Below are positions 34,718-49,071 of a stretch of 64,000 bases of DNA, piece after piece. The stretch's first letter is position 1, and each line of letters starts with the position of its first letter. The notes below the pieces were generated by a model, which was not told the origin of the DNA, searched no databases, and was given only the letters and a program-made list of their open reading frames with translations. Source of the stretch: Treponemataceae bacterium. GTDB lineage: Bacteria; Spirochaetota; Spirochaetia; Treponematales; Rectinemataceae. The stretch spans positions 1,440,001-1,504,000 of the forward strand of contig CAXXHO010000003.1 of assembly GCA_963667725.2 (NCBI GenBank). Reading direction: 5' to 3'. The position numbers and the translations under genes were made by a program.

Positions 34718-36037
34718 ATGCGCAAAAAGAGCGTCATGCTCATCGTGCTCGGAGCCTGCGTCCTTGCCCGAGTCGCCGCGGAGGAGACTGTCGCGGGCCT
34801 GGCTTCGGCTATCGATATGCTATGGCTCATCATCACCGGTTCTCTGGTCTTCTTCATGCAAGCAGGATTCGCCTTCGTCGAAACCGGCCTGACGCGCGCC
34901 AAGAACGCGACGAACATCCTCATGAAGAACCTGATGGATTTCTGCTTCGGTTCCATCGTTTTCTGGATGATCGGCTGGGGATTCATGTACGGCGCCGACA
35001 AGCTGGGCGGCTTCGTCGGTTTCTCGGAATTCTTCAAGGGACCTATGGGAGACCCCACCTTCTACCGGAACTGGTTTTTCCAGGTAGTCTTCGCGGCCAC
35101 GTCGGCCACGATCGTCTCCGGCGCCATGGCCGAACGGACGAAGTTCAAATCCTACCTCATCTATACCTGTTTCATCTCCGCCTTCATCTATCCCGTCTCC
35201 GGCCATTGGATATGGGGCGGTGGATGGCTCGCCAAGCTCGGTTTCCACGATTTTGCCGGCTCTAGCGTCGTTCATTCCGTCGGAGGCTGGGCGGCATTCG
35301 TTGGAGCCGCCATCCTCGGCCCAAGAACCGGCAAATACGTCAGGTGCAACGGAAAAGTCAGCGTCAAGGCTTTCCCTGGCCATAATATCGGCTGGGCTTT
35401 CCTCGGCGTCTTCATCCTCTGGTTCGGCTGGTATGGCTTCAATCCCGGGTCTACCCTTTCGGGCATGAGCGCCGACATCGGAAGAATCGCCGTCACGACA
35501 ACCTTGGGAGGATCGGCGGGAGCCGTGGCCGCTCTAGTCTTCTCCTGGATTTGGTTCAAGAAGCCCGACGCGTCCATGACGCTGAACGGCTGCCTCGCCG
35601 GCCTCGTCGCAATAACCGCGCCCTGCGCCGTCGTCTCCCCTGGCGACGCCATCGTCATCGGCCTGATCGCCGGCGTCCTCGTCGTCCTGGCCGTCGAGTT
35701 CATCGACAAGGTGCTCAAGATCGACGATCCCGTGGGCGCCTCCTCCGTCCACATGGTGAACGGAATCTTCGGAACCCTCGCCGTCGGCATTTGGGGCAAT
35801 GTGGACGGGGTGGCCGTCGGACTGCTTTACGGCGGCGGCCTTCATCAGCTGGGCATCCAGGCCCTGGGCGCTTTTTCCGTGGCCGCCTGGGCAGGACTGA
35901 CCAGCGTCGCCCTCTTCTTCGCCATCAAGAAAACGGTCGGCCTCAGGGTTACGGCCAAGGAAGAACTCATGGGGCTCGACCTCGGCGAGCACAAGTCCGA
36001 AGCCTATCCCGGCTTCCAGTTCTTCAGCAATCTTTAA
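34718..36037 (+). CDS. amtB: Ammonium transporter
   Basis: [28 protein letters not shown] and [10 protein letters not shown]. Confidence 0.96.
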
Positions 36038-36047
36038 GGAGGACGCT

Positions 36048-36389
36048 ATGAAGATGATAATCGCCTATATTCAGCCCCACCAGCTCAACGAGGTGAAGCA
36101 GGAACTCTATAAGTCCGAGATCTACAAGATCTCGGTGTCGAACGCCATGGGCTGCGGACAGCAGAAAGGCTACAGCGAGATTTATAGAGGAGTCGACATC
36201 GAGGTCAATCTGCTCAAGAAAGTGAGGATCGAGATCGGCGTCAACGACAATTTCGTGAAGCCGACGGTGGATGCGATAATCAAGGGGGCGCAGACGGGAG
36301 AAATCGGGGATGGGAAGATATTCATCCTGCCCATGGATGAGTGCATCAGGATAAGAACAGGGGAGACAGGTTCCGAAGCGATCGGCTGA
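36048..36389 (+). CDS. glnK: P-II nitrogen regulatory protein
   Basis: T-loop EIYRG and [10 protein letters not shown]; directly downstream of amtB. Confidence 0.92.
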
Positions 36390-36422
36390 AAGAGAGAGGT
36401 GGCCCCGACAGCCTCCAAGCCC

Positions 36423-37481
36423 TCAGTTCAAGGCTTCGAACAGCTTCTGGGCGAAAACAGCCGATGTTTCCCTGGGGCAGAGGTAGGCCACGGCGCTGGG
36501 ATCATCGCAGTCCAGTTCGATCACGTCTAGTCCTATGGTCCGCACTGATTCACGAGCCAGGACGACGCCTTTCGCGCCGGCAGCCGCGGAAAAGACCGCC
36601 GTCACGCGAAGCTTGTTACCTGGCCCGGAGCAAGTAGCGAGCCCGAGGAAATTAGGAACCTCGGCACCCTGGGATGCCGGTCCGATGAGGGTGCCTTCGC
36701 CCTCGTCGAAGGTGGAACGCACGCGCATTCTCAGGCCGCTGGCCTTGGCCAGCAGGGCGGACTTGTCGTGCAGCACTCTCGCGCCATGATTCGCCAGCCT
36801 GAACATGGAGTCGTAGTCGAGAAAATGCATGAAGGGGACGCCCTTAACGAGCCGAGGATCCGCCTTGGCCACGCCGGGGACATCCTTGTAGATATCGACG
36901 AAATCGGCCCCGAGCGCCGCCCCTATCGCGACGGCGCTTGTGTCGCTCCCGCCGCGGCCGAGGGTGAGTATGTCGCCCACGGCGTCGACGCCCTGGAAGC
37001 CCGTCACGACAGGAACCTTCCCGGCCGCCAGAACAGCTCTGAGGCGCGCCGGATCGATCGCGGCAGGCGCCGCGTCCCCGAAGGGGCCACTGGCCGCGAT
37101 GCCGGCAGAGTGCGCCGTCATGGGAACGGCCCCGATGCCCATGGAATTGAGGAGGGCCGCTATCACGCAGGCCGAGATCACTTCTCCGCAGGAGACCAGT
37201 AGGTCGCTGGTGAGCCCATCCATGCCGCCAGCCGCATCGGCGGCGACGACCGGGCCGGCCGAGCCTACGCCGCCCGCTGTGCCTGCACCGCCGGAATATT
37301 CTCCCAGCAGATCAAGGAGCGTATCGGTGGCGTAGGGATCTCCCCTCCGCCCCATCGCGGAAACGACGAGGACGATTTCGTCCCCGGCGTCCCGCGCCGC
37401 GCCGACTTTTTTCGCGAGCATTTCTCTCGCGGCGGGATCAGCCAGCGACGTTCCGCCGAATTTCTGAACAATCAAAGCCAT
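36423..37481 (-). CDS. Aspartate kinase, DapG-like, with short divergent C-terminus
   Basis: VQKFGGTS, VVSAMGRRGDPYATDTL, TLGRGGSDTSA and ADPR. Confidence 0.88.
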   Translation of the reverse strand: MALIVQKFGGTSLADPAAREMLAKKVGAARDAGDEIVLVVSAMGRRGDPYATDTLLDLLGEYSGGAGTAGGVGSAGPVVAADAAGGMDGLTSDLLVSCGEVISACVIAALLNSMGIGAVPMTAHSAGIAASGPFGDAAPAAIDPARLRAVLAAGKVPVVTGFQGVDAVGDILTLGRGGSDTSAVAIGAALGADFVDIYKDVPGVAKADPRLVKGVPFMHFLDYDSMFRLANHGARVLHDKSALLAKASGLRMRVRSTFDEGEGTLIGPASQGAEVPNFLGLATCSGPGNKLRVTAVFSAAAGAKGVVLARESVRTIGLDVIELDCDDPSAVAYLCPRETSAVFAQKLFEALN

Positions 37482-38504
37482 CTATAATTTCCTTGGTTCG
37501 AGTCCCCGCGCCGCGAGGGTTTCGGCGATCTGGACGGCGTTGAGGGCGGCGCCCTTCCTGAGGTTGTCCGACACCACCCAGAGATTCAGTCCGTTGGGCA
37601 CCGTCGGGTCCCTGCGGATCCTGCCGATAAAGACCTCATCCCGGCCTTCGCAGTCCAGGGCCGTAGGATACACCAGGTTCGCCGGATCGTCCATCACGAG
37701 CACCCCGGGCGCCTTCTTCAAAAGCGCCACCACCTCGGCCAGCTCGAAAGGCTTCTCCGTCTCGATGTTGATCGACTCCGAATGCCCTCTCGTCACCCCG
37801 ATCCGCACCGCCGTCGGACTCACCAGAATGTTCGGGTCCAGCATCTTGTGCGTCTCGTGCACCATCTTCATCTCTTCTTTCGTGTAGCCGTTGTCCAGGA
37901 ACACGTCGATGTGCGGCAGGGCGTTGAAGAGTATCTGTCTCGGATAGACCGCCACCGTGAGGGGCTTGCCCTCGGTGAATTCCTTCGCTTGGTTCCGCAG
38001 CTCGGCTATGGCCGCCGCTCCCGTGCCCGAAACCGCCTGATAGGTCGCGACGACGATCCGCTTGATCTTGTAGGCATCGTGGATGGGCTTGGCCGCCACG
38101 AGCATCTGGATGGTCGAGCAGTTGGGGTTGGCGATGATGCCTTTGTGCCAGGCAAGGTCCTGGGGATTGACTTCGGGGATGACGAGGGGGACCTTGGGGT
38201 CCATGCGCCACTGGCTGGAGTTGTCGATGACGATGGCGCCTTCAGAGGCCGCCGCCGGAGCGAGGATTTCGCTGGCTTCGGCGCCCGCAGAGAAGAGGGC
38301 GATGTCGACATCGCCGAAGGCGCCCGGCTTGGCCGCCCTCACCGTCTTTTCCACGCCCTTGAAGGTCACTTTCTTTCCGGCCATGGCCTCGACGTCCATG
38401 GGGATGATCTCCGAGACCGGAAAGTCCCTCTGCTCGAGGGTTTTCAGCATTTCCGTGCCCACGGCGCCCAGGGCGCCCACCACCGCGACTCTATAGGATT
38501 TCAT
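37482..38504 (-). CDS. asd: Aspartate-semialdehyde dehydrogenase
   Basis: VVGALGAVG, IIANPNCSTIQ and SDNLRKGAALNAVQIAE. Confidence 0.96.
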   Translation of the reverse strand: MKSYRVAVVGALGAVGTEMLKTLEQRDFPVSEIIPMDVEAMAGKKVTFKGVEKTVRAAKPGAFGDVDIALFSAGAEASEILAPAAASEGAIVIDNSSQWRMDPKVPLVIPEVNPQDLAWHKGIIANPNCSTIQMLVAAKPIHDAYKIKRIVVATYQAVSGTGAAAIAELRNQAKEFTEGKPLTVAVYPRQILFNALPHIDVFLDNGYTKEEMKMVHETHKMLDPNILVSPTAVRIGVTRGHSESINIETEKPFELAEVVALLKKAPGVLVMDDPANLVYPTALDCEGRDEVFIGRIRRDPTVPNGLNLWVVSDNLRKGAALNAVQIAETLAARGLEPRKL

Positions 38505-39003
38505 GATTCCTCCGAATGCTTATGACATTTTCCACGAATTCTTTCGGGAACTCCGCCGTCACGACGGCCGTCCTGTTGTTCCGCGCGGGATTGATCGCCG
38601 CGATCACCACGCCGGGACAGACAACCTGCCCCTGACGGTCCACCATTTCCACTTTCTGTCCCTTCACCGGAAGCGGCAGGTATTCCCAGGGGAAGCGAAT
38701 CCTCGCCATGTCGCCATCGACGCTTTTGATCGTTATGGCGAGTCCGGGACAGGCAGGGATGCAGAGCCCGCAGAGGATGCATTTTCCCCTGTCGATGACG
38801 GGCAGGTTCGTTATGGGGGAGCCCACCGTAAGCGCGTTCTGCGGGCAGCTTGTCTCGCAGGGGTTGCAGGGAATTTCCTCGACGCATTCGATGCAGAGAC
38901 AGGCTTTCTCCTCCAGGTCCGCGAGGGTGGTCAGCATGCCGGCGGCGCGCAGCTCTTCAAGAGAAGGCGCTCCCGTCGTTTTCAGCGATTGATTGTCACT
39001 CAT
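38491..39003 (-). CDS. 4Fe-4S dicluster protein (oxidase/dehydrogenase subunit)
   Basis: ECVEEIPCNPCETSCP and CILCGLCIPACPG. Confidence 0.87.
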   Translation of the reverse strand: MSDNQSLKTTGAPSLEELRAAGMLTTLADLEEKACLCIECVEEIPCNPCETSCPQNALTVGSPITNLPVIDRGKCILCGLCIPACPGLAITIKSVDGDMARIRFPWEYLPLPVKGQKVEMVDRQGQVVCPGVVIAAINPARNNRTAVVTAEFPKEFVENVISIRRNHEIL

Positions 39004-40100
39004 TGGGCCGCTCCCTTCTCAAGAATCCTCTGTTTCGCGGCAAAGCGTTTCTGCCCGAATACGCCCTGCCTGAGGGAACTCAGACGTTGTACGGTTTCTT
39101 CCGTCCTGGCCTTCATCGTGGCTTCGTCCAGATATCCCATGGCATATGCCGCGTGGATGCCCGCGAGCCTTCCTTCTTCCATGGCCGTGCTAGCTTCCTC
39201 AACGCCCGCTATGTCGCCTACCACGTAGATAGATTCATCGCTGGAGCGCATGTACCGATCGTGGCCCGGCATATTGCCGCCGAGCTCCGGAATGTATATT
39301 TCCTTGCATCCCGCTATGCATGCCAGTTCTATGGAAGGCGTGAGGCCGACGGCGAGGCAGATGGTGTCCACTTCGAGGGTCTCTTCCGTTCCCGGTATGG
39401 GCTGGAAACGCGAGTCGATCTTCGCGATGATCGCGCGCTCAACGCTTTCCTTGCCCTCGGCGCGAAGGATTGTCGTGGCGCAGCGGAAGGGCACGCCGGC
39501 GCGGGCCACTTTGGCCGTGTGGACGCCGTAACCGCCTAACTTGGGAAGGGCTTCCACCACCGCCACCACCTCGGCTCCTGCCTGCATAAGCTGATAGGCC
39601 ACGATGACGCCGACGTTGCCCGATCCTATCATGAGCACCCGTTTTCCGGGCAGGACGCGATGCACGTTAATGAGGGTCTGGGCGCAGCCGGCCGTCATGA
39701 CGCCAGGCAAGGTCCAGCCGGGAAAGCTGAGGGCGTTCTCGGTCGCCCCCGTGGCGAGGATGAGTTTCGAGGCTTCTATCGTGTATGAGCGATTTCGGTT
39801 TTCCACCGCCCACACTTTCAGTCCGCTTTCTATGCCCACGACTTCCGTCTTGAGCCGCACATCGATGCCCAGGTTGAGCGATTCGGTCAGGAGTTCCTTC
39901 CCGATCTCGAAACCCCTGGTGCCGGCCTTGTGCTCGCGGGAACCGAAAAACTTGTGTATCTGCTTGAAGAGCTGTCCGCCCGGCTTGGAGTTTTCATCCA
40001 TCAATATCACCGGAGCGCCGGCTTTTTTCAGTTCTATCGCCGCGCAGAGCCCGGCCGGCCCGGCGCCGACCACTATGGCGGGTTTCCTGTCAGTTTCCAT
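39000..40100 (-). CDS. FAD/NAD(P)-dependent oxidoreductase, sarcosine-oxidase alpha/HcnB/OoxA-like subunit
   Basis: VGAGPAG, PGGQLFKQIH, ATGATE, FPGWTLPGV and GSGNVG. Confidence 0.87.
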   Translation of the reverse strand: METDRKPAIVVGAGPAGLCAAIELKKAGAPVILMDENSKPGGQLFKQIHKFFGSREHKAGTRGFEIGKELLTESLNLGIDVRLKTEVVGIESGLKVWAVENRNRSYTIEASKLILATGATENALSFPGWTLPGVMTAGCAQTLINVHRVLPGKRVLMIGSGNVGVIVAYQLMQAGAEVVAVVEALPKLGGYGVHTAKVARAGVPFRCATTILRAEGKESVERAIIAKIDSRFQPIPGTEETLEVDTICLAVGLTPSIELACIAGCKEIYIPELGGNMPGHDRYMRSSDESIYVVGDIAGVEEASTAMEEGRLAGIHAAYAMGYLDEATMKARTEETVQRLSSLRQGVFGQKRFAAKQRILEKGAAQ

Positions 40101-40449
40101 CGCCGGCCTCCGCTTCGATTTTCCAGCTTCCCACGCCTTTCTGCCGCTCAACAGTCATGCCGTCGCGCACATCGGTCACGCAGGTGCGGACGCCCGGAAC
40201 GCCGTCCACCATCATGACGCAGTCGGTGCAGCGCCCGATGCCGCAGAACATCCTGCGGGGAGATCCTTTCTTCGTATAGCGGAACACCTTGACGCCGGCG
40301 GCGATAAGCGCCGACATGATCGGCTCGCCGGCTCTCGCCTTCAGCGCCTTCCCCTCGAAGAAGATGGTGACTTCTTCCGTCGCCTCGAGGTCGCCGAGAA
40401 TGGCGTGATGGCCTATTCTCGAGCCTTCCTGAATGCTGCCGTCCTTCAT
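40090..40449 (-). CDS. 2Fe-2S protein, HcnA/sarcosine oxidase alpha N-terminal-like
   Basis: FCGIGRCTDC...VRTC. Confidence 0.87.
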   Translation of the reverse strand: MKDGSIQEGSRIGHHAILGDLEATEEVTIFFEGKALKARAGEPIMSALIAAGVKVFRYTKKGSPRRMFCGIGRCTDCVMMVDGVPGVRTCVTDVRDGMTVERQKGVGSWKIEAEAGDGN

Positions 40450-41324
40450 TTTAGGAGCCCCAGATCGGCGAGCGCCGCATGAAGGGCCGCGGTTACTTCC
40501 GTCGAGGCGTCCTTGAGGGGAGCCCGCAGGGAACCCGCGTTGAAGCCGCAGAGCCTGAGCGCCATTTTCACCGGCACGGGGTTCGGCTGGAGGAAAAGGG
40601 CCTTGTTGATGGCCTGCAGTTTCACGTGCAGGGCCGCCGCTTTGGCGTTGTCGCCGGCCAGGTAGGCTTCAATCATCTTTTTCATGATCCCGCCGGCCAC
40701 ATGTCCGGTCACCGACACGACTCCATAGCCGCCAATAGCGAGCGTGGGCAGGGTGAGCGAATCCTCGCCCGTATAGACCCTGAAGCCCGGCACCGCGTTC
40801 TTGATGACGATGGTCGTGTCGTCGAGCACGCCGGCGGCGTCCTTGAGCATCGTGATGTTCGGCACGTCGCGCGAAAGCTTCACGATGGTCTCAGGCCTGA
40901 TGCTTATGCCCGTTCTTCCCGGGACATTGTAGAGCATCGAGGGAATCTTCACCGACGAGGCTATGGCGGCGAAATGATCGTAGAGCATTCCCTGATCGGG
41001 CTTGTTGTAGTAAGGAGCGACGAGAAGAAGGCCATCGGCCCCGGCCTCCTCGGCGTCGAGAGCGTTCTGGATCGAGGCCGCCGTGCTGTTCGTGCCGGCG
41101 TTTCCGATGAGCGGCACGGAGACAGCCTTCCTCACCGCCTTTATGAGGTCTATCTTTTCCTGGCGCGTCAAGGTCGGCGATTCGCCTGTCGTTCCGCTCA
41201 GGACGAGGGCGTCGACGCCGTCGGCGATGAGCCGTTTTGCCAGTTCGACCGCTTTTCCGGGATCCAGTTCCAAGTCCTCGCGAAAAGGTGTTGCCATAGC
41301 GACAATGAGTCTTCCGAAATCCAT
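40446..41324 (-). CDS. dapA: 4-hydroxy-tetrahydrodipicolinate synthase
   Basis: GTTGES, PYYNKP, YNVPGRT, catalytic LKDA and NPVPVK. Confidence 0.88.
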   Translation of the reverse strand: MDFGRLIVAMATPFREDLELDPGKAVELAKRLIADGVDALVLSGTTGESPTLTRQEKIDLIKAVRKAVSVPLIGNAGTNSTAASIQNALDAEEAGADGLLLVAPYYNKPDQGMLYDHFAAIASSVKIPSMLYNVPGRTGISIRPETIVKLSRDVPNITMLKDAAGVLDDTTIVIKNAVPGFRVYTGEDSLTLPTLAIGGYGVVSVTGHVAGGIMKKMIEAYLAGDNAKAAALHVKLQAINKALFLQPNPVPVKMALRLCGFNAGSLRAPLKDASTEVTAALHAALADLGLLK

Positions 41325-41368
41325 CGTATTTCCTCCGTTATTGTTCCGCGGTCGACACGACCGCGCTT

Positions 41369-41650
41369 TCAGTCATCCATCGATTTGATTGAAACCGGAC
41401 GCACTGGCTGCCTGAAAGAAGCGATCTCCACTTCCTCCGGTTTCAGATGCAGTTCTTCCGCCAGAATTCTCTCCACGAGACGCCGGCAGGACCTGCCCTG
41501 ACATATACCCATGCCGGCTCGCGTCCAGCGCTTTACTTCGATGACACTCTTAGCTCCCGCGCGGATCGCGTCCCGGATTTCCTGCTCGGTGACTTCTTCG
41601 CATCGGCAGATATACTTTTCGTTTCCTTTAGCATTCTCTTCGGCCATCAC
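41369..41650 (-). CDS. BFD-like 2Fe-2S protein
   Basis: ICRCEEV...TRAGMGICQGRSC...RQPVRP. Confidence 0.87.
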   Translation of the reverse strand: MMAEENAKGNEKYICRCEEVTEQEIRDAIRAGAKSVIEVKRWTRAGMGICQGRSCRRLVERILAEELHLKPEEVEIASFRQPVRPVSIKSMDD

Positions 41651-41651
41651 C

Positions 41652-42377
41652 TTACTCCCTGTAATGTTCCCAATATTTCTTCACATCCTCGATGAGGGAA
41701 TCCATATGTCCGCTGATACACGTTTCCGCCTTGTCCGGATCATGAGCCGTCAGGGCCTCGAGGATCGATCGATGGGCTGTCCTGTAGTTTCCTCCGACCC
41801 GGCTCCGCATGAACTCAAAGAGTTCAGACTGCTGCCCCATCATGGCAAGGATGCCGTAAAGCGCAACCAGAGCCGAATTGGTGGAAGCTTCGGCAATGCC
41901 GCGGTGGAAGGCAATATCGACTTCCGCGATGCTTTCGCCTCTCGCCGCTTTGGCTTCCTGTTCTTCCAGAATCTGCTTGAGGTGTTCCAGCTTCGCTTCC
42001 GTGATGTTCTCGGCGGCCAGGCGCACTGTCTCTCTCTCTATAGCCTTTCTTGCCTGCAGCACCATGATATATTCATCGAGAATCCGGCTATCTATTAGAT
42101 TCTCCAGCTCTTTCCTATGCATATCGAACGATTTATAGCTTTTCGCCCTCTCTATGGCCTTCAGCCCCTGTTTCGTCAGCACGCGGCCTTTGTTCGTCCT
42201 GCTTTCCACATAGCCGAGTGACTCAAGCCTGTATAGAATTCGCCCGATAGATGCTGAACTGACCTTGCAATTCCTTTTTTCGCACTCCTCCACGAGACTC
42301 CAGGATCCGAGAGGCTCACCCGCGTCGCGGATGAATTCGAGCACCATCAGATCTCGCTCGTCGAGATTGGTTTTCAC
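41652..42377 (-). CDS. Transcriptional regulator with winged-HTH and FCD (GntR-type) ligand domain
   Basis: EPLGSWSL...GRILYRLESLGYV...GRVLT; FCD motifs ARKAIE, DIAFHRGIAEASTN and HRSIL; GTG start. Confidence 0.85.
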   Translation of the reverse strand: MKTNLDERDLMVLEFIRDAGEPLGSWSLVEECEKRNCKVSSASIGRILYRLESLGYVESRTNKGRVLTKQGLKAIERAKSYKSFDMHRKELENLIDSRILDEYIMVLQARKAIERETVRLAAENITEAKLEHLKQILEEQEAKAARGESIAEVDIAFHRGIAEASTNSALVALYGILAMMGQQSELFEFMRSRVGGNYRTAHRSILEALTAHDPDKAETCISGHMDSLIEDVKKYWEHYRE

Positions 42378-42390
42378 GCGATAATTCCTT

Positions 42391-43575
42391 TCAGACGCTT
42401 TGGAAGCGCCCAGGAGCAAATTTTTCGAGAGAAAATTCCGGCGTCACTCCGCAGACGAGATCGGCCATCACCCTGCCAGTTATTGGCGATAGGGCAATGC
42501 CGTCGCCTTCGTGACCGGCGGCTATGAAGAAGCCCGGCGCGCCGGGGATCTCCCCGAGGAAGGGCATTCCATCCGGTGTCGAAGGCCGCAGGCCGGCGAA
42601 GGTCCTTATAAAGTTTATCTTTTCCATCACGGGGAAGAACCGCTTGGCTTGGGCGGCCAGCAAAGCGAGAGCGTCGGGATTGGTAGTCTTGTCGAAGCCA
42701 ACGTTCTCCCTTGTGGAGCCGATGAGATAGTTGCCGCTGTGCGTCCCCGTGAAAGCAAATCCCAGGCCAAACTTATCGCCGGGCTTGGCCGAGGCGTCTT
42801 TGGGAACCGCCTGCGGTCTCAACTTCGAGACAATATACTGAGCGCTCCAGACGTTGGTTTCCCCGAGCGGAGGAATGGATTCTGTGACAATGACCTGACC
42901 TTTCCGCGGTGTTATGGGCACCTCAAAGCCTATGAGTCTGGTGACTTCGTTTGCCCAGGCACCCGTCGCGTTGACGACACTTTCCGCCTCAACCACATCT
43001 CCCGTTGAGAGGCTGAGCACCCAATAACCATCGCGCTTAGCGATTTCAGTTGGCCTTGCCCGGTCCATAAATCTAAGGCCATGCTTTTTTGCGCCGAGAA
43101 GGAATCCCTTCATGAGGAGCATAGGGTTAACCTGGGAGTCGCGCTCGCTATACGTGGAAGCGATGATGTCCCTGGCAACCAGCGGCTGCAGCTCGCGAAG
43201 ACGTTTGGCGTCGATTATCTCGACCTTGAGGCCATAACTGTTCTGGCTGGCGACAAAGTCCTCCATTACCTTGAGATGCTCCTCATCCTCTATCAGGATG
43301 GTTCCGCCGTGGGTATCAAATTCAATATCGCAGGGAAGCTCCTGCTTCAGGCCTTCAAAAAGCTCCAGGCTCCTGAATGCCATTTCGAGAAGAATGCCAG
43401 GTTTCTTGGACTGGAGAAGGATCATGTCATCGCAGGAACCGGAAGCGCCGGCGCCCGGAACTACCTTGTCTATAAGAATCACGTTCTTACCGCGCTTGCA
43501 TAGTTCATAGGCTATGGATGTTCCATTGACGCCGGCGCCAAGCACCGCCACATCGCATTTCGTTGTCGCCATCAT
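42391..43575 (-). CDS. FAD-dependent D-amino-acid/imino-acid oxidase family subunit (HcnC/OoxB/SoxB-like)
   Basis: LGAGVNG, NATGAWA, PRKGQ, FAGLRPSTPDG and GHEGDGIALSPITG. Confidence 0.9.
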   Translation of the reverse strand: MMATTKCDVAVLGAGVNGTSIAYELCKRGKNVILIDKVVPGAGASGSCDDMILLQSKKPGILLEMAFRSLELFEGLKQELPCDIEFDTHGGTILIEDEEHLKVMEDFVASQNSYGLKVEIIDAKRLRELQPLVARDIIASTYSERDSQVNPMLLMKGFLLGAKKHGLRFMDRARPTEIAKRDGYWVLSLSTGDVVEAESVVNATGAWANEVTRLIGFEVPITPRKGQVIVTESIPPLGETNVWSAQYIVSKLRPQAVPKDASAKPGDKFGLGFAFTGTHSGNYLIGSTRENVGFDKTTNPDALALLAAQAKRFFPVMEKINFIRTFAGLRPSTPDGMPFLGEIPGAPGFFIAAGHEGDGIALSPITGRVMADLVCGVTPEFSLEKFAPGRFQSV

Positions 43576-44304
43576 TTAGCCTCTGTCCTGAATCAAGCCG
43601 GAATGGATATATCCCGCAAGCGTCACGATGTCGAACACCGGCCTGCCGCAGGATTCCTGAATCGCCTTTCTGAAAGGGGGCATATTCGTACACTCCAAAA
43701 CTATGAAATTTATGTCGGGATGTCGATCCACGAGTCTGCGGGCGACACTTCTTAGCTCGGTTTCCGCCTTGCCTCTATCGAGACATGGTACTGAATCGAT
43801 GTCTCCCTTCTCTAGAAATACTCTCGTGAATTCTGGACTATCGTCCATTCCCGCTACCGCCAAGGGAAGCCCAGATGCTCCGCATTGGTCAAAATGCCGG
43901 CTGCCGAGCGAAGAAGCCCGCGCGGTCATTACTCCAATTTTTCCCTTTCCTCCGAAAAGCGAGAACAGAAAGGGAATCTGCAGGAGACTGGAAGTGAAAA
44001 CCGGAATACTGACCGCCGCCGCGAGCTCTTTCTGGAAGAGGACGAGAAAGCCGCAGCTTGTCGTTATGGCTTCCACGCCTTCCGCCTCAAGCTCCCGCGC
44101 CGCGGCGATGAAGGGATCGAGGAGAGCGGGGTCACCCTCCTCTACCACACGCTTCGGCGAAGCTCCCTCGACCTTGAGGTAGCGTACGGGAAAAGGAAAG
44201 GTACGGGCATTCCCTATGTCCCCGGGAATTCGGGGAAACCTCGTGTCCAGCATCAAGATGCCGAGAGATTGACCATAGGTTGTATACCCTCCCTTCGCGA
44301 TCAT
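43576..44304 (-). CDS. Aspartate/glutamate/hydantoin racemase family protein
   Basis: Two-cysteine motifs TTSCGF and LECTNMPP. Confidence 0.85.
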   Translation of the reverse strand: MIAKGGYTTYGQSLGILMLDTRFPRIPGDIGNARTFPFPVRYLKVEGASPKRVVEEGDPALLDPFIAAARELEAEGVEAITTSCGFLVLFQKELAAAVSIPVFTSSLLQIPFLFSLFGGKGKIGVMTARASSLGSRHFDQCGASGLPLAVAGMDDSPEFTRVFLEKGDIDSVPCLDRGKAETELRSVARRLVDRHPDINFIVLECTNMPPFRKAIQESCGRPVFDIVTLAGYIHSGLIQDRG

Positions 44305-46214
44305 GCAAATGCCTCCATGTGGGCTTTGACCGCTTTCTTGTTGAGGATGAAGAAGGCGATCAGTATCACGGCGGAAGCAACGATTATGATGATCTGAGGA
44401 ACAAGCTGCGTCATGATGGAAACATTACAGACGAGGACGACGAGCGCGGCGGTAAAGACGCCCAGGAGCATCTGCAGCACTCTGCCGATATTTTTAAAGA
44501 GATAGCCCGTGAAGGTCGCGGACCAGAGCATGGAGATGATCAGACCCAGAAGGAAGGTCGCGAGGATATCCAGCGGAGTACCTTTCAGGATCAGGGCGTT
44601 ATTGTAGACGAATATGAAGGGAATAAGATAACCCATGATAGCCAGCATGGATGCCTCAACCCCAGTGGCCAGAGGTTTAGTGCCCGCAATAGCCGCTCCG
44701 CAATAGGACGCGATGCATACAGGAGGCGTTACCTCAGCCATTATGGCGAAATAGAATACGAAGAGATGGGCAGGCAGGACATCGATGCCGAGAGCCATCA
44801 TGGCCGGTCCACCGATCGTCACCGCGATAATGTACGCGGGTGTGCAGGGCAAACCCATGCCGAGCAGAAGGCATGTAAGCATGACGAGAATCAGCGCAGG
44901 AAGGAGGAAACCGCCCGAGAGGCTCTGGATGGCCGTGGCGATGCCGAGAGCCAAGCCTGTGTAGGTAACAACGCTGACAACTATGCCTGCGCCTGCGCAG
45001 GTAACGCCCAACATTATGCAGTTATAGCCGGAATTCTCAAAAATCTGAAAAAGCTTTTTCGGCGTAAGTCTCGTATCCTTGCGGAAAAAGCTGAGAACGA
45101 AGGACGAAGCGATCGAGTAGATGCAGGCTCCGAAAGGTGAATAGCCTATGACAAGGAAGGCGATAAGGACCACGAGGGGGAGGAGGAGATAAGAATCCAT
45201 GATGATCTGCTTCCAGGAGAGCATGTCCTTGGGATCCATCGCCTTGAGGTGTTCTTTGAGCGCTACGAAGTGCACTCGCCAGTAGATGCTCACATAGTAA
45301 AGGATCGCGCCCAAGGCTGCCGCCAGGGCTATCGTCGCATATGGGATATTCGTGATCTCAGACATCACGAAGGCTCCAGCGCCCATTATCGGCGGCATGA
45401 TGAGCCCTCCCGTCGATGCCGCGGCCTCAACGGCGCCGGCGAACTGGGGTCTGTATCCGAGCTTTTTCATGAGAGGTATGGTGAAGGTCCCCGTGGCGTA
45501 GACATTGGCCGACGCGACGCCCGATATGGAGCCGAAAAGGCCGGAACTGATGACGGCGATCTTGGCCGGACCGCCCGGCCCCCGCCCCGCGATCTTGGTG
45601 GCAAAATTGGTGAAAAACGCGCCGGTCTTCGTCGTTTCCATGAAACAGCCAAAAATGACGAAAATGGCAACAAAGGTCGCCGTAACGCCGGTGATCGCTC
45701 CGTAGATGCCCGTATCGGTCAGCAGATAATTCATCTCGACAATGCGGGCAAAACGTGTGGGCCTCGCATAAAAAATGCCTGGCAAATATGGGGCTACGAA
45801 AACGTAAAGAATAAAGACCCCGACCAGCACCGCCATGGCTGGCACGACGACACGCCGAATCGCCTCGAGGATGAGCAATATGTTTATGGTCCCCAGAACT
45901 ACTTGAAGTGTAGACACCGAGGAGACCATCTGCATTCGCATATTGAGCGGCTCATTGTAGATGATGATATAGAGGGCCGGCACGAAGGAGAGGAGGGCGA
46001 GCAGAACGTCCAAAATGGTCGGCCTGTCGACTGGAGACTTCGTTTTGGATGCCGGAAATAGGATGAAAGCCATTGGAAGCAGAAACAACAAATGAACGCC
46101 TCGCTGGACGCGGGGCTGCATGACGCCAAAAACCGCCGTGTAAAGATAGAACAGGGCGATTATGGCAGACCATATACCAACCAAGGTCTTGAGCGGACCT
46201 GTGAGTTTTCGCAT
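44301..46214 (-). CDS. TRAP transporter fused 4TM/12TM permease (TAXI type)
   Basis: GPGGPAKIAVISS, EAAASTGGLIMPPIMGAGAF and VTPPV. Confidence 0.93.
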   Translation of the reverse strand: MRKLTGPLKTLVGIWSAIIALFYLYTAVFGVMQPRVQRGVHLLFLLPMAFILFPASKTKSPVDRPTILDVLLALLSFVPALYIIIYNEPLNMRMQMVSSVSTLQVVLGTINILLILEAIRRVVVPAMAVLVGVFILYVFVAPYLPGIFYARPTRFARIVEMNYLLTDTGIYGAITGVTATFVAIFVIFGCFMETTKTGAFFTNFATKIAGRGPGGPAKIAVISSGLFGSISGVASANVYATGTFTIPLMKKLGYRPQFAGAVEAAASTGGLIMPPIMGAGAFVMSEITNIPYATIALAAALGAILYYVSIYWRVHFVALKEHLKAMDPKDMLSWKQIIMDSYLLLPLVVLIAFLVIGYSPFGACIYSIASSFVLSFFRKDTRLTPKKLFQIFENSGYNCIMLGVTCAGAGIVVSVVTYTGLALGIATAIQSLSGGFLLPALILVMLTCLLLGMGLPCTPAYIIAVTIGGPAMMALGIDVLPAHLFVFYFAIMAEVTPPVCIASYCGAAIAGTKPLATGVEASMLAIMGYLIPFIFVYNNALILKGTPLDILATFLLGLIISMLWSATFTGYLFKNIGRVLQMLLGVFTAALVVLVCNVSIMTQLVPQIIIIVASAVILIAFFILNKKAVKAHMEAFA

Positions 46215-46254
46215 AAATTCCCCTTTTGGAAAAAAACGGATCAGTCAGGGAACC

Positions 46255-46288
46255 GGAGCGGCGCTTCAGGTCTCTGAAACGCCGCTCC
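46255..46288 (-). other. Intergenic stem-loop between TAXI binding protein and permease
   Basis: GGAGCGGCGCTTCAG...CTGAAACGCCGCTCC inverted repeat. Confidence 0.65.
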
Positions 46289-46317
46289 AATCCAAGAAAA
46301 GCAGAATATAGAACGGA

Positions 46318-47340
46318 TTATTTCATCAAGCCCGCTTCGCGATAATACTTAAGGGCGCCTGGGTGCAGGGGGACCTGAACGGTGGTGCCGGCATTCTTGG
46401 GCTCGAAAACCTTATATCCTGCGCCCATCTGGAGCAGGAAGTCTTTGTTCTCGTTGAGAACTTTCGTGAGGACATAGACGACATCATCAGAAAGTTTCGG
46501 GCTGACAAGCATTTCTGTCGAATGACAGAGTGTCTGGATGTCGCTGGGCATACCTGTGTACGTGCCGCCGGGAACCCTGGCTAGTCCAGAATTGAGGGCG
46601 ACTGTTCCATAGGTGGTGGCGCAGAAATTGATGAGCTCATCGGAGAGCGCCATGAGGGTGGCGGGTCTGCCCATCGCCATTTCGGTGATGATTGCCGCGG
46701 GGAGTCCGACGCAGGTGAAGGCGTAATCGACGTGGCGGTCCTTGAAGAGGCTCGTCATGTCGCCATAGATGGCCTGGATCACCTTACCGCCGTTCTGTTT
46801 GATCTTGTCATAGGAAATGCCATAATGCTGGAGCACAAAGGAGGTCATGACATATTCGGAAGTACCGGTCATGGGTGCCGCGACGTTCAGTTTGTCGCCC
46901 TTCTTAACCTTGGCGACAAACTGGTCGAGGGTAGTGACGCCCTGATCCTTGGCGGCCAGGAAGTGATAGTAATCGACGGCGAGAGTGCCAGCAAAAGCCG
47001 AGATCCTCTTATATGACTTGTCATAGATCGGCGCCGTACCGTTAAAGGCTGCCTTGTCCACATAACCGACGCCCCAGGCTATATCGGCGTCTCCCTGATC
47101 GAGAGCGATGGGGTTGGCCACTCCGCCGCCCGGGACGACCTTGATAGTGATGCGAGGCTCTTTTTCATTGACAAGGCGCGCGAAACCGCCTGCCACCGTG
47201 TACCAGCCGCCGCCCATGCCGCCCGCTACCCATGTATAGGTTCCCGCTTTCATGTTCGCCGGACCTACCTGCGCGTAAGCCATACCCGCTGCGACAAAGC
47301 AAAGAACCAACAGCGCCAAGGGCTTCCCTAACTTTTTCAT
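46318..47340 (-). CDS. TAXI-family TRAP solute-binding protein
   Basis: Signal peptide; AGGMGGGWY, PGGGVAN and VPLHPGALKYYRE. Confidence 0.92.
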   Translation of the reverse strand: MKKLGKPLALLVLCFVAAGMAYAQVGPANMKAGTYTWVAGGMGGGWYTVAGGFARLVNEKEPRITIKVVPGGGVANPIALDQGDADIAWGVGYVDKAAFNGTAPIYDKSYKRISAFAGTLAVDYYHFLAAKDQGVTTLDQFVAKVKKGDKLNVAAPMTGTSEYVMTSFVLQHYGISYDKIKQNGGKVIQAIYGDMTSLFKDRHVDYAFTCVGLPAAIITEMAMGRPATLMALSDELINFCATTYGTVALNSGLARVPGGTYTGMPSDIQTLCHSTEMLVSPKLSDDVVYVLTKVLNENKDFLLQMGAGYKVFEPKNAGTTVQVPLHPGALKYYREAGLMK

Positions 47341-47369
47341 GTGTGCCTCCTATGGAAATTTCTCTACCA

Positions 47370-47416
47370 CTCATCAGTAGATGAGCAATCGTACGACAAG
47401 TATTTGAACCTGTCAA
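47370..47416 (-). promoter_or_regulatory. Sigma70 promoter and candidate operator of the TRAP-dap operon
   Basis: Minus-strand TTGACA-N17-TACGAT (47416-47388); palindrome CTCATC-AGTA-GATGAG at 47370-47385. Confidence 0.65.
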
Positions 47417-47478
47417 GAAAAATTTATAGTATATTTATGCTGATTTACAGAGGGAAAACAAATTTTTATGAATAATTT

Positions 47479-49071
47479 TTACAAAATCGGGCGCTCAAAA
47501 ACCAATTTGCCGGCGACTGCCGTCGCTGAAACCTTTGTTATCCGAAGCGAGTTCTCATCATCCTCGATCAAATCGCCATCGAGAACGGTGAAGTCGGCCC
47601 ACTTTCCGGGCTCGAGGCTCCCCCTGCCGCCTTCCTCGAAATTGGCGCGCGCGGCCCAGATCGTCATGGCGCGCAGGGCATCGGCCCGGGACATGGCTTG
47701 CGAAGGCCTGTAGCCTCCTTCAGGCAGCCATGCGTCGTCCTTCCTGAAAACCGCCGAGCGGAAACCGCGCAGCGGTTCTAGTCTCTCTATGGGAAAGTCG
47801 CTGCCGTTGGCCAGCCAGCCGTTCTGCGCGAGGAGGTCGCGGTAGCGGTGCGAGCGGGACATGCGTTCATGTCCAAGACGCGTTTCGGTCCAGGCCATGT
47901 CGGAGGTGGCGTGGCTGGTCTGTACCGAGGGGATGATGTTGAGGCGGCCGAAACGCGGAAGGTCGTCGTCGTGGACAAGCTGGGCGTGCTCGACGCGCCA
48001 GCGCAGATCGTTGCCAGGTTCGAGAAATCTTTCGTAGGTATTGAGAACGAGGCGGGCGGCCGCGTCGCCGATGGCGTGGACATTCATCTGGAATCCGCTG
48101 GCCTTGGCGATTCCGCAGACACGCGCGAGCTCGTCGGGGTCCAGGGTAAAAAGGCCGCGGTTTCCAGGATCGTCGGCGTAGGGCTCCAGGAGACGCGCGC
48201 CCCGCGAGCCCAGGGCTCCGTCGGCGAACATCTTGAAAGACCTGACCGTGAGCCTATCGCCGGCACTAGGACCGCGCGACGCGAAATATTCGATATTCTC
48301 CAGGGTAGGCAGCAGCATGACATAGATGCGGATGGGGAGATCCCCCTCCCCCTGCATTTTTTCCATGAAGAGCGCGTCGTTTTTTTCGGTTCCGGCGTTG
48401 GAAACCGAGGTAAGCCCGGCGGCGAAGCACTTCTCCTGGGCGACGAGGAGGGCTTGCCTCGTGGTCGCTTCGCCAGGCGAGGGAATTACGCTTTTCACCC
48501 TGTCGACGGCGTTGTCCAGGAGAAGCCCTGTGGGACGGCCGCCCGAAACGACGATTGTCCCGCCGTCAATGCGGGACGCCGCGTCTATGCCCGCGGCGGA
48601 GAGGGCGGCGGAATTGGCCATGGCGGCGTGTCCGTCGACGCGGATCGCCAGGACAGGGACGCGGGGAAAGGCTCTATCGAGAAGCTCATTGCTGGGGAAT
48701 TGTCCCGATTCCCATGTGTTCTGGTCCCAGCCGCGGCCCTGGACCCAGGGCTCAGGGCTATTGGTGGCATGCGCGACAAGTCTCGCCACCGTTTCCTCCC
48801 AGGACCTAGCGCCGAAAAGCTGGGCGCGCTGAAGGACGTAGCCATAGCTCAGGAAGTGGCAGTGCGGATCCATGAAGCCAGGGTAGACGACGGCATTTCC
48901 GAAATCGAGCCGCCGTCGCGGCGAGAATGCCTCTTCCATATCGTCGCGCCTTCCGACGGCAATAACGCGGCCGAGGTCGACGGCCACGCACTCGGCGACG
49001 GAGAAGGCTTTATCCACGGTATAGATGCGGCGAGCGTTGACGATGAGATCGACTCGGGTCTTCATGCCCAT
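47479..49071 (-). CDS. YtcJ-like metal-dependent amidohydrolase
   Basis: PGFMDPHCH, KMFADGALGS, HAIGD, RVEHAQ and GSDFP. Confidence 0.9.
   Translation of the reverse strand: MGMKTRVDLIVNARRIYTVDKAFSVAECVAVDLGRVIAVGRRDDMEEAFSPRRRLDFGNAVVYPGFMDPHCHFLSYGYVLQRAQLFGARSWEETVARLVAHATNSPEPWVQGRGWDQNTWESGQFPSNELLDRAFPRVPVLAIRVDGHAAMANSAALSAAGIDAASRIDGGTIVVSGGRPTGLLLDNAVDRVKSVIPSPGEATTRQALLVAQEKCFAAGLTSVSNAGTEKNDALFMEKMQGEGDLPIRIYVMLLPTLENIEYFASRGPSAGDRLTVRSFKMFADGALGSRGARLLEPYADDPGNRGLFTLDPDELARVCGIAKASGFQMNVHAIGDAAARLVLNTYERFLEPGNDLRWRVEHAQLVHDDDLPRFGRLNIIPSVQTSHATSDMAWTETRLGHERMSRSHRYRDLLAQNGWLANGSDFPIERLEPLRGFRSAVFRKDDAWLPEGGYRPSQAMSRADALRAMTIWAARANFEEGGRGSLEPGKWADFTVLDGDLIEDDENSLRITKVSATAVAGKLVFERPIL

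Follow-up and report, generated by a model that had tools for sequence, protein, structure and literature searches.

We have found in a spirochaete genome (Treponemataceae bacterium, NCBI GenBank assembly GCA_963667725.2) a real, conserved and co-regulated twelve-gene unit, probably catabolic and apparently undescribed, that is built from known enzyme families. It lies in a stretch of 64,000 nucleotides, called here the window (contig CAXXHO010000003.1, positions 1,440,001 to 1,504,000), and runs on its minus strand from 47340 to 36423. The TAXI-family solute-binding protein comes first, followed by a TRAP permease, a racemase-fold protein, a DAO-superfamily flavoprotein, a regulator with helix-turn-helix (HTH) and FCD domains, a BFD-like protein, DapA, HcnA-like and HcnB-like proteins, a [4Fe-4S] protein, aspartate-semialdehyde dehydrogenase (Asd) and, last, aspartokinase (Ask). 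The reading that we prefer, with a probability of about one half, is that this conserved, operator-bearing unit imports dipicolinate (pyridine-2,6-dicarboxylate, released from endospores), reduces it and cleaves it through a reversed DapA. Judging from gene content and its conservation, the catabolic direction and a point of entry between DapA and DapB for the compound that is imported have good support, while the identity of the substrate as dipicolinate and of the flavoprotein as a reductase has moderate support. The genome holding the window is designated G000; other genomes, loci and contigs carry the letters G, L and C with a number, and papers are cited by PMC number.

The linkage between the flavoprotein and dapA extends over two phyla. 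Counting G000, an ortholog of the flavoprotein was found in 12 of 61 related genomes and in 2 of 401 Spirochaetota, where a third match was of the hydroxyproline type; it was also found in 3 of 399 Clostridia (centre genome counted). In a map of 26 genome loci, from which L045 (27% identity) was left out, dapA was present in 22 and the remaining 4 end before its position. The clade of the window flavoprotein has 45 rows, some of them redundant: 39 with dapA, five cut short and one (L055) without dapA at the usual place. All trees were quick or fast ones with soft deep branches, and left out matches with fewer than 300 (quick tree) or 240 (clade tree) aligned residues, as well as L163 in the clade tree. 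Clostridial members have a sodium:solute symporter in place of the TAXI-TRAP system and a shuffled gene order. The constant partner is dapA, while importer and gene order vary. The initial annotation had called for a search for conserved linkage of asd, dapA and ask with the oxidase, racemase and TAXI genes, and had inferred that the imported compound is connected to the aspartate-semialdehyde/pyruvate node; the linkage is borne out in Spirochaetota and Clostridia, and the connection is supported. Three further flavoprotein clades have members adjoining dapA, dapB or ddh. Among 401 Bacillota, 27 genomes matched and a canonical dapA adjoined the flavoprotein in only five; the rest were paralogous systems, so the subunit set alone is uninformative on the substrate.

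The unit is also held together by a palindromic operator, RCTCAT-N6-ATGAGY (47369 to 47386), directly behind the -10 box of its promoter, with a single match in the window where 0.01 would be expected. If one change is allowed, it was present in 13 of the 13 spirochaete promoters printed; the strict pattern was found in 15 of 23 module genomes, against 1 of 23 for the reversed control. It heads clostridial operons too, being common to Spirochaetota and Clostridia, and a form with a 3-nt spacer appears in L051, L063 and L064. Of the five strict sites located elsewhere, one stands before asd-ask in G463 and one before asd in G470, two are within unrelated open reading frames (ORFs), and the fifth (G023:C16) was left out of the site inspection. 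The main locus of G463 is without asd and ask, and it is before the distant asd-ask pair that the second operator copy stands. The regulator of the unit (41652 to 42377, minus strand, 241 aa, start taken from orthologs) is a repressor-like protein with a winged HTH and an FCD ligand domain (PF07729, PF08461), and from their co-occurrence it likely binds this operator. A second high-scoring operator-like site was seen in a low-GC island of G000 (C3:1379744, L246), about 225 nt ahead of the genes for a branched-chain-amino-acid-type ABC transporter, which may be another member of the regulon. The binding protein of this transporter has only 28–30% identity to those near related flavoproteins.

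We have examined the three lysine-pathway enzymes of the unit. The product of the window dapA (40446 to 41324, minus strand) matches a canonical, Bacillus-like 4-hydroxy-tetrahydrodipicolinate synthase (DHDPS) with 282 bits to TIGR00674 (cut-off 206), and its best solved matches are DHDPS. It keeps the catalytic and aspartate-semialdehyde-binding residues T44, T45, Y107, Y133, R138, K161, G186 and N248 (E. coli numbering). All eight are kept in every linked DapA copy covering those positions, while in the weaker DapA-like proteins, most from hydroxyproline-type clusters, at least one differs in 8 of 8 and both R138 and N248 are lost in 7. By profile and residues, the window DapA is a true DHDPS and probably handles aspartate semialdehyde, pyruvate and 4-hydroxy-tetrahydrodipicolinate (HTPA) in both directions. 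The linked dapA genes of L063 and L064 were placed outside the main dapA clade (fast tree) and thus were likely recruited separately. Asd (37482 to 38504, minus strand) is of the Gram-positive type (asd_B; TIGR01296, 440 bits, cut-off 324), and the genome has a nearly identical twin of its gene at another place. Ask (36423 to 37481, minus strand) is a short kinase, closest to PRK08210 and below the cut-off of that model, predicted to be insensitive to feedback: no ACT domain was detected in it or in three orthologs, against two ACT stretches in the housekeeping LysC in the same scan.

The twin asd belongs to a unit at G000 C3:217127-227207 (L001), is identical to the window asd over 866 consecutive bases and is real by read depth. 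That unit codes for a thiamine pyrophosphate enzyme and a class I aminotransferase, with asd last; a divergent GntR-TRAP-TAXI set and a P5C dehydrogenase gene are nearby. This points to another catabolic path leading to aspartate semialdehyde, and to gene conversion having acted on the asd copies. Two asd copies of this type are also found in G001, G002, G005 and G012.

The genome check for a separate lysine set that the initial annotation had called for was positive: G000 has an asd-lysC-dapB-dapA-dapD operon under a lysine riboswitch (C3:132006-137247), with thrA elsewhere, and its dapA has 35% identity to that of the window. The window asd, dapA and ask are therefore extra copies, and the statement that dapB is absent holds for the operon and fails for the genome. 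The possibility that the unit is itself the housekeeping lysine operon is ruled out, as the separate operon has dapB and dapD, lysine control and an ACT-bearing kinase. Together, the importer, the FCD regulator, the kinase devoid of ACT domains and the separate riboswitch-controlled lysine operon argue for a catabolic direction. In L186, L192 and L215 an aldehyde:ferredoxin oxidoreductase gene stands in for asd and ask, in L186 with the operator behind its promoter, which fits oxidation of the semialdehyde.

Flux in the opposite sense, with Ask, Asd and DapA making HTPA and the complex either oxidizing it to dipicolinate (as an alternative to SpoVFAB or EtfA) or replacing DapB, seems to us improbable. 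The ACT-less kinase would suit it, dipicolinate synthesis in Bacillus shares the first three enzymes (PMC9024752), and the housekeeping cluster is without dapA in 9 of 16 module genomes versus 4 of 21 module-free relatives (p=0.036, the kin not being independent). The latter loss is however explained just as well by a reversible enzyme serving both uses. No dpaB exceeded the TIGR02852 cut-off in 5 module genomes (dpaA was not searched), which agrees with a different enzyme making dipicolinate; but spirochaetes are not known to form endospores, two unrelated importer families have been swapped into the unit, and the replacement of asd and ask in three loci is hard to place in a forward path. 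A role in place of DapB, which the initial annotation had listed as its third option, is disfavoured because dapB is present somewhere in 27 of the 30 genomes carrying the flavoprotein or a close paralog, and in some is co-regulated with the complex.

The lysine genes that occasionally join the unit help to locate the point of entry. Either dapB, ddh or dapL-lysA accompanies it in L052, L064, L104, L121, L126, L164 and L270; dapB-dapA and dapB-dapL-lysA lie around the operator in L064 and L164. The ddh gene is that of L052 and L121, and L042 has it upstream of the operator, whereas G000 and four other module genomes yielded no ddh. Of 27 genomes, only 2 have the operator at a distance of up to 1.5 kb from dapB; dapB with operator was seen in G020 and L104. 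Entry between DapA and DapB is the only position at which none of these partners would be redundant: a product delivered there would give each of them a use, yet breakdown would require none but DapA. We propose dipicolinate because it is the abundant natural compound one two-electron step away from this point. Dipicolinate is the chief small molecule of spores. It accounts for 5–15% of their dry weight, and sediments contain a large pool of carbon in this form (PMC11472048). Fermentation of dipicolinate by anaerobes was reported in 1990, and a paper of 2022 still describes the enzymatic pathway as not elucidated (PMC9826295; PMC8048543 gives ecological context only). Literature searches on anaerobic dipicolinate degradation, related dehydrogenases and reverse DHDPS found no description of the cluster, most subscription papers and supplements being outside the literature searched.

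In the proposed route, dipicolinate would be imported and reduced to dihydrodipicolinate by the five-subunit flavin/iron-sulfur complex, with hydride going to C2. The electrons would be donated by NADH, ferredoxin or both and would pass through the alpha, [2Fe-2S] and [4Fe-4S] subunits. After hydration, the ring would be split by reversed DapA, giving pyruvate and aspartate semialdehyde; from the latter, Asd and Ask would form aspartate, NAD(P)H and ATP. The racemase-fold protein would put right the stereochemistry or the tautomeric form. In some relatives, the intermediate would also continue toward diaminopimelate (DAP) and lysine, by way of DapB and then Ddh or DapL-LysA. Pyruvate would end as acetate and aspartate, via fumarate and succinate, as propionate, which would account for the products described for the fermentation and for which the electron balance closes arithmetically. 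Of the options first put forward, the degradation of a dipicolinate-related ring with Asd and kinase reversed is thus retained as the best reading, the substrate being a prediction. That the regulon is the missing anaerobic dipicolinate pathway of spore-fed, non-sporulating anaerobes, with a DAO-fold flavin/Fe-S complex that dearomatizes the pyridine ring by hydride transfer, is a tentative proposal for which the balance tips slightly toward doubt. If dipicolinate is indeed the substrate, the unit would bring a type of pyridine-ring reductase not described before, DapA, Asd and aspartokinase would have a physiological role in reverse, and a stated gap in spore-carbon recycling would be closed. 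With its binding protein, its regulator and operator, and cultured species with an ortholog of the beta subunit (among them Anaerovirgula multivorans and Marinisporobacter balticus), the unit is a complete and testable candidate for anaerobic dipicolinate breakdown.

Several observations weigh against dipicolinate reduction. In alignment, the beta subunit has the carboxylate Arg of glycine oxidase and D-amino-acid enzymes and is without that of sarcosine and proline oxidases. The glycine-oxidase-type Arg implies D-specific chemistry at a carboxyl-bearing carbon, and reduction of that kind would yield the enantiomer opposite to that needed by DapA and Asd, although the racemase gene is absent from one third of the loci (8 of the 24 that cover its position). 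The four dap-linked flavoprotein clades had no clear common active-site signature in the beta-subunit alignment. Sister clades carry piperideine-6-carboxylate dehydrogenase or alanine dehydrogenase, which would suit the oxidation of a saturated imino acid, and the wide presence of dapB is compatible with entry one step lower. DHDPS is usually regarded as a one-way enzyme, and the module dapA is the sole dapA over the cut-off in 10 draft genomes, which lends indirect support to a genuine DHDPS activity and means that its product probably also runs forward. No clear aspartase was found among 3 lyase matches in G000, and the fumarate-reductase match of this genome lies on a possible contaminant contig, so that the propionate branch is only predicted here. 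Finally, the characterized relatives of the complex oxidize amines, and in the accessible parts of PMC4575208 and PMC6608401 none reduces a pyridine ring.

Two regions of G000 touch on these last steps. On contig C4, which may be a contaminant in this 6%-contaminated assembly, the succinate dehydrogenase/fumarate reductase genes (C4:126291-129359) seem frameshifted and the other genes look foreign. At C3:468000-474600 (L003), genes resembling methylmalonyl-CoA mutase, a GTPase, an epimerase and a sodium-pumping decarboxylase, as would lead from succinate to propionate, were read by eye.

Much of the contrary evidence would be accommodated if the complex were a D-centre dehydrogenase for a saturated C7 compound, namely meso-DAP, cis-piperidine-2,6-dicarboxylate or its 4-hydroxy form, an alternative that we regard as unlikely but serious. 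Meso-DAP or the piperidine would give (S)-tetrahydrodipicolinate, followed by reversed DapB, and the 4-hydroxy form would lead straight to HTPA; DapA, Asd and the kinase would be reversed as with dipicolinate, and the racemase would widen the range of isomers. The Arg of the beta subunit and the enzymes of the sister clades would be expected, and the required (S) centre would be kept without a racemase, in agreement with its optional presence. The dapB gene, besides being present in nearly all the genomes, is co-regulated or adjoining in several loci. Dead cells are rich in meso-DAP. Necromass is a food of related spirochaetes (PMC6052044), an oxidation would agree with all characterized relatives, and there is a parallel in the hydroxyproline route, with its epimerase, D-dehydrogenase, DapA-fold enzyme and semialdehyde dehydrogenase (PMC6608401). 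However, the DAP and piperidine versions need DapB, which is absent from most operons; in G000 its gene is only in the lysine-riboswitch operon, despite the dedicated copies of dapA, asd and ask. Furthermore, a ddh adjoining the flavoprotein (L121, L052) would duplicate DAP oxidation, and a co-regulated dapL-lysA (L064, L164) makes little sense if DAP is imported. As for the 4-hydroxy form, we know of no abundant natural source, no search having been made. Were a saturated C7 compound the substrate, the unit would still be an undescribed catabolic route via the lysine pathway. For either substrate, the labels that annotation pipelines now give to these genes, sarcosine oxidase or hydrogen cyanide (HCN) synthase plus lysine biosynthesis, are wrong.

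The subunit set has also suggested a quite different chemistry, the oxidative cleavage of an N-(3-amino-3-carboxypropyl) compound (nicotianamine-, staphylopine- or carboxyspermidine-like) to aspartate semialdehyde, with DapA consuming the aldehyde. Opine dehydrogenases have this same set (PMC4575208) and asd belongs to the regulon, but it is dapA and not asd that is fixed among the redox genes. This leaves the most constant partner unexplained, as well as the usual lack of dapB, and the neighbourhoods examined have no recurrent gene that would deal with the amine half; we therefore consider this second option of the initial annotation very improbable. What probability these four explanations leave falls to something unforeseen.

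We have compared the five redox subunits, all on the minus strand, with their solved and characterized relatives. The DAO-superfamily flavoprotein (42391 to 43575, PF01266), with its glycine-oxidase-type GLRP Arg330 and a GHEGDG motif, would be the substrate-binding beta subunit; the structure model of an ortholog has a TM-score of 0.85 to both glycine oxidase and PDH1-beta. The alpha subunit is an HcnB/OdhA/SoxA-like FAD/NAD(H) flavoprotein of 366 aa (39000 to 40100, PF07992) whose closest solved chains are sarcosine oxidase alpha and PDH1 alpha. The BFD-like [2Fe-2S] subunit (41369 to 41647, PF04324 and PF17806) has Cys15, 17, 50 and 55 in its 93-aa frame, and the HcnA/OdhC-like [2Fe-2S] subunit (40090 to 40449, PF13510) has Cys69, 74, 77 and 90. 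A ferredoxin-like subunit (38491 to 39003, PF12838 and PF00037) contains Cys sets predicted to bind two [4Fe-4S] clusters. DAO beta, FAD alpha and [2Fe-2S] subunits, with their Cys motifs, are thus encoded together as in heteromeric DAO amine dehydrogenases. The R-x-W motif of the FMN site (PMC4575208) is not found in the beta subunit, in which R-x-F aligns with the R-T-W of PDH1. Named DAO equivalogs all scored below their NCBIfam cut-offs (ThiO 174 vs 251, SoxB 80 vs 529, AmaA 58 vs 600, D-ProDH 45 vs 600).

Other combinations of these subunits were also seen. G000 has three paralogous DAO/BFD/flavoprotein modules without dap genes, at about 24–25% beta identity (C3:908864-912165, 314744-317918 and 2218992-2221609). 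Two beta subunits of different clades per genome occur in G1080 (L188, L189), G1157 (L191) and G1207 (L186, L187). In G1080 the dapA-linked beta gene is without adjoining electron-transfer genes, which suggests that these subunits are shared between the beta subunits. Sister flavoprotein clades without dapA (L119, L102; L187, L197, L199-L203, L079, L096, L124) pair with the same racemase family and with piperideine-6-carboxylate dehydrogenase, or else with a 450-aa membrane protein that has neither a name nor a Pfam match, plus an alanine or 2-hydroxyacid dehydrogenase; they may represent anaerobic pipecolate or alanopine-type pathways.

The known system most similar in layout is the L-hydroxyproline pathway, in which LhpA is the epimerase, LhpBEF the D-hydroxyproline dehydrogenase and LhpC the Pyr4H2C deaminase, followed by α-ketoglutarate semialdehyde (KGSA) dehydrogenase. 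The two share a racemase, a DAO-beta/alpha/[2Fe-2S] complex, a DapA-fold enzyme, semialdehyde oxidation and a GntR/FCD regulator (PMC6608401, PMC4575208). Hydroxyproline-type clusters of Bacillota were also the nearest annotated plasmid matches, at 34% identity. The window unit differs in its separate flavoprotein clade, in a canonical DapA with R138 and N248 rather than an LhpC-like deaminase, in Asd and kinase replacing the aldehyde dehydrogenase, in the additional [4Fe-4S] subunit, and in a racemase of the Asp/Glu fold rather than of the proline-racemase fold. A proline-racemase-family epimerase is absent from the unit and present in a separate clade, and we reject the hydroxyproline pathway as its identity. 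PDH1 (PDB 1Y56), the heterotetrameric Thermococcus L-proline dehydrogenase, OdhABC and HcnABC belong to the same fold and subunit families and have the [2Fe-2S] and ADP-binding motifs, with about 25% identity, a different active-site Arg and R-x-W in place of R-x-F (PMC4575208); none is described with dapA, asd or ask in the accessible literature compared. Dipicolinate synthesis through SpoVFAB (DpaAB) or EtfA relies on the same Ask, Asd and DapA and has its redox step where the path branches at HTPA (PMC9024752), whereas the window unit has an unrelated redox enzyme, an importer, a repressor, a non-sporulating host and the opposite proposed direction. The aerobic dip cluster of Alcaligenes faecalis JQ135, compared by its description only, shares the proposed substrate and a repressor of the GntR/FadR class, which there senses dipicolinate, and differs in its O2-dependent monooxygenase, yielding 3-hydroxydipicolinate, and in its operator, GWATAC (PMC11472048).

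The importer consists of the TAXI-family binding protein (46318 to 47340, 340 aa; TIGR02122, 166 bits, cut-off 84) and a fused 4TM/12TM TRAP permease (44301 to 46214, 637 aa; TIGR02123, 567 bits, cut-off 321), both on the minus strand. In a sequence comparison with the structure database, the solved relatives of the former were too distant to read a ligand. The racemase-fold protein (43576 to 44304, minus strand) belongs to the uncharacterized family PRK07475. Its fold (TM-scores of 0.5–0.6 to Asp/Glu/hydantoin racemases) and two cysteines, Cys84 (invariant) and Cys205 (at least 90%) in 25 rows, place it in the Asp/Glu racemase superfamily, as first described, although as an optional and not a core member of the unit. 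Sequence searches found no solved relative, one weak profile match and, in the Atlas, only unnamed clusters.

As for the layout, the gene order and common strand were as annotated, with twelve genes rather than the eleven announced in a list that itself named twelve, and dapA does sit between the redox genes, flanked by those of the BFD-like and HcnA-like subunits. ORF gaps, as first taken, range from -29 to +44 nt, the exception being 103 nt between the TAXI and TRAP genes, and this spacing suggests that all twelve are co-transcribed; the starts of the regulator and HcnB-like genes were reset to those of the orthologs. A promoter scan recovered the sigma-70-type TTGACA-N17-TACGAT at 47416-47388 (minus strand), together with a weaker promoter-like site on the same strand within the TRAP gene (45040-45013). 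A consensus match alone proves little, since 14 such sites were found versus 7.4 ± 2.6 in shuffles, but the head promoter is better supported because -35, -10 and operator are kept in 13 of the 13 orthologous upstream regions printed. Contigs of the public run X1, which may be the source sample, tile 36000-47824 with zero differences, ruling out an assembly artefact, and conservation and operator linkage rule out a chance adjacency of the genes. GC content at third codon positions is mosaic, 0.60–0.69 from the TAXI gene to the BFD gene and 0.73–0.85 from dapA to ask. L027 and L041, with two FCD genes each, have 92–100% identity from dapA onward and 63–87% before it.

Beyond the unit, an Amidohydro_3 metal-dependent hydrolase gene (47479-49071, minus strand) is located just upstream of the operon promoter, as in 10 related loci. 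The promoter and operator separate it from the operon, and its adjacency is therefore probably shared synteny. At the other end, amtB-glnK-like genes for an ammonium transporter and a PII protein (34718-36389, plus strand), read from the sequence, converge with the end of the operon.

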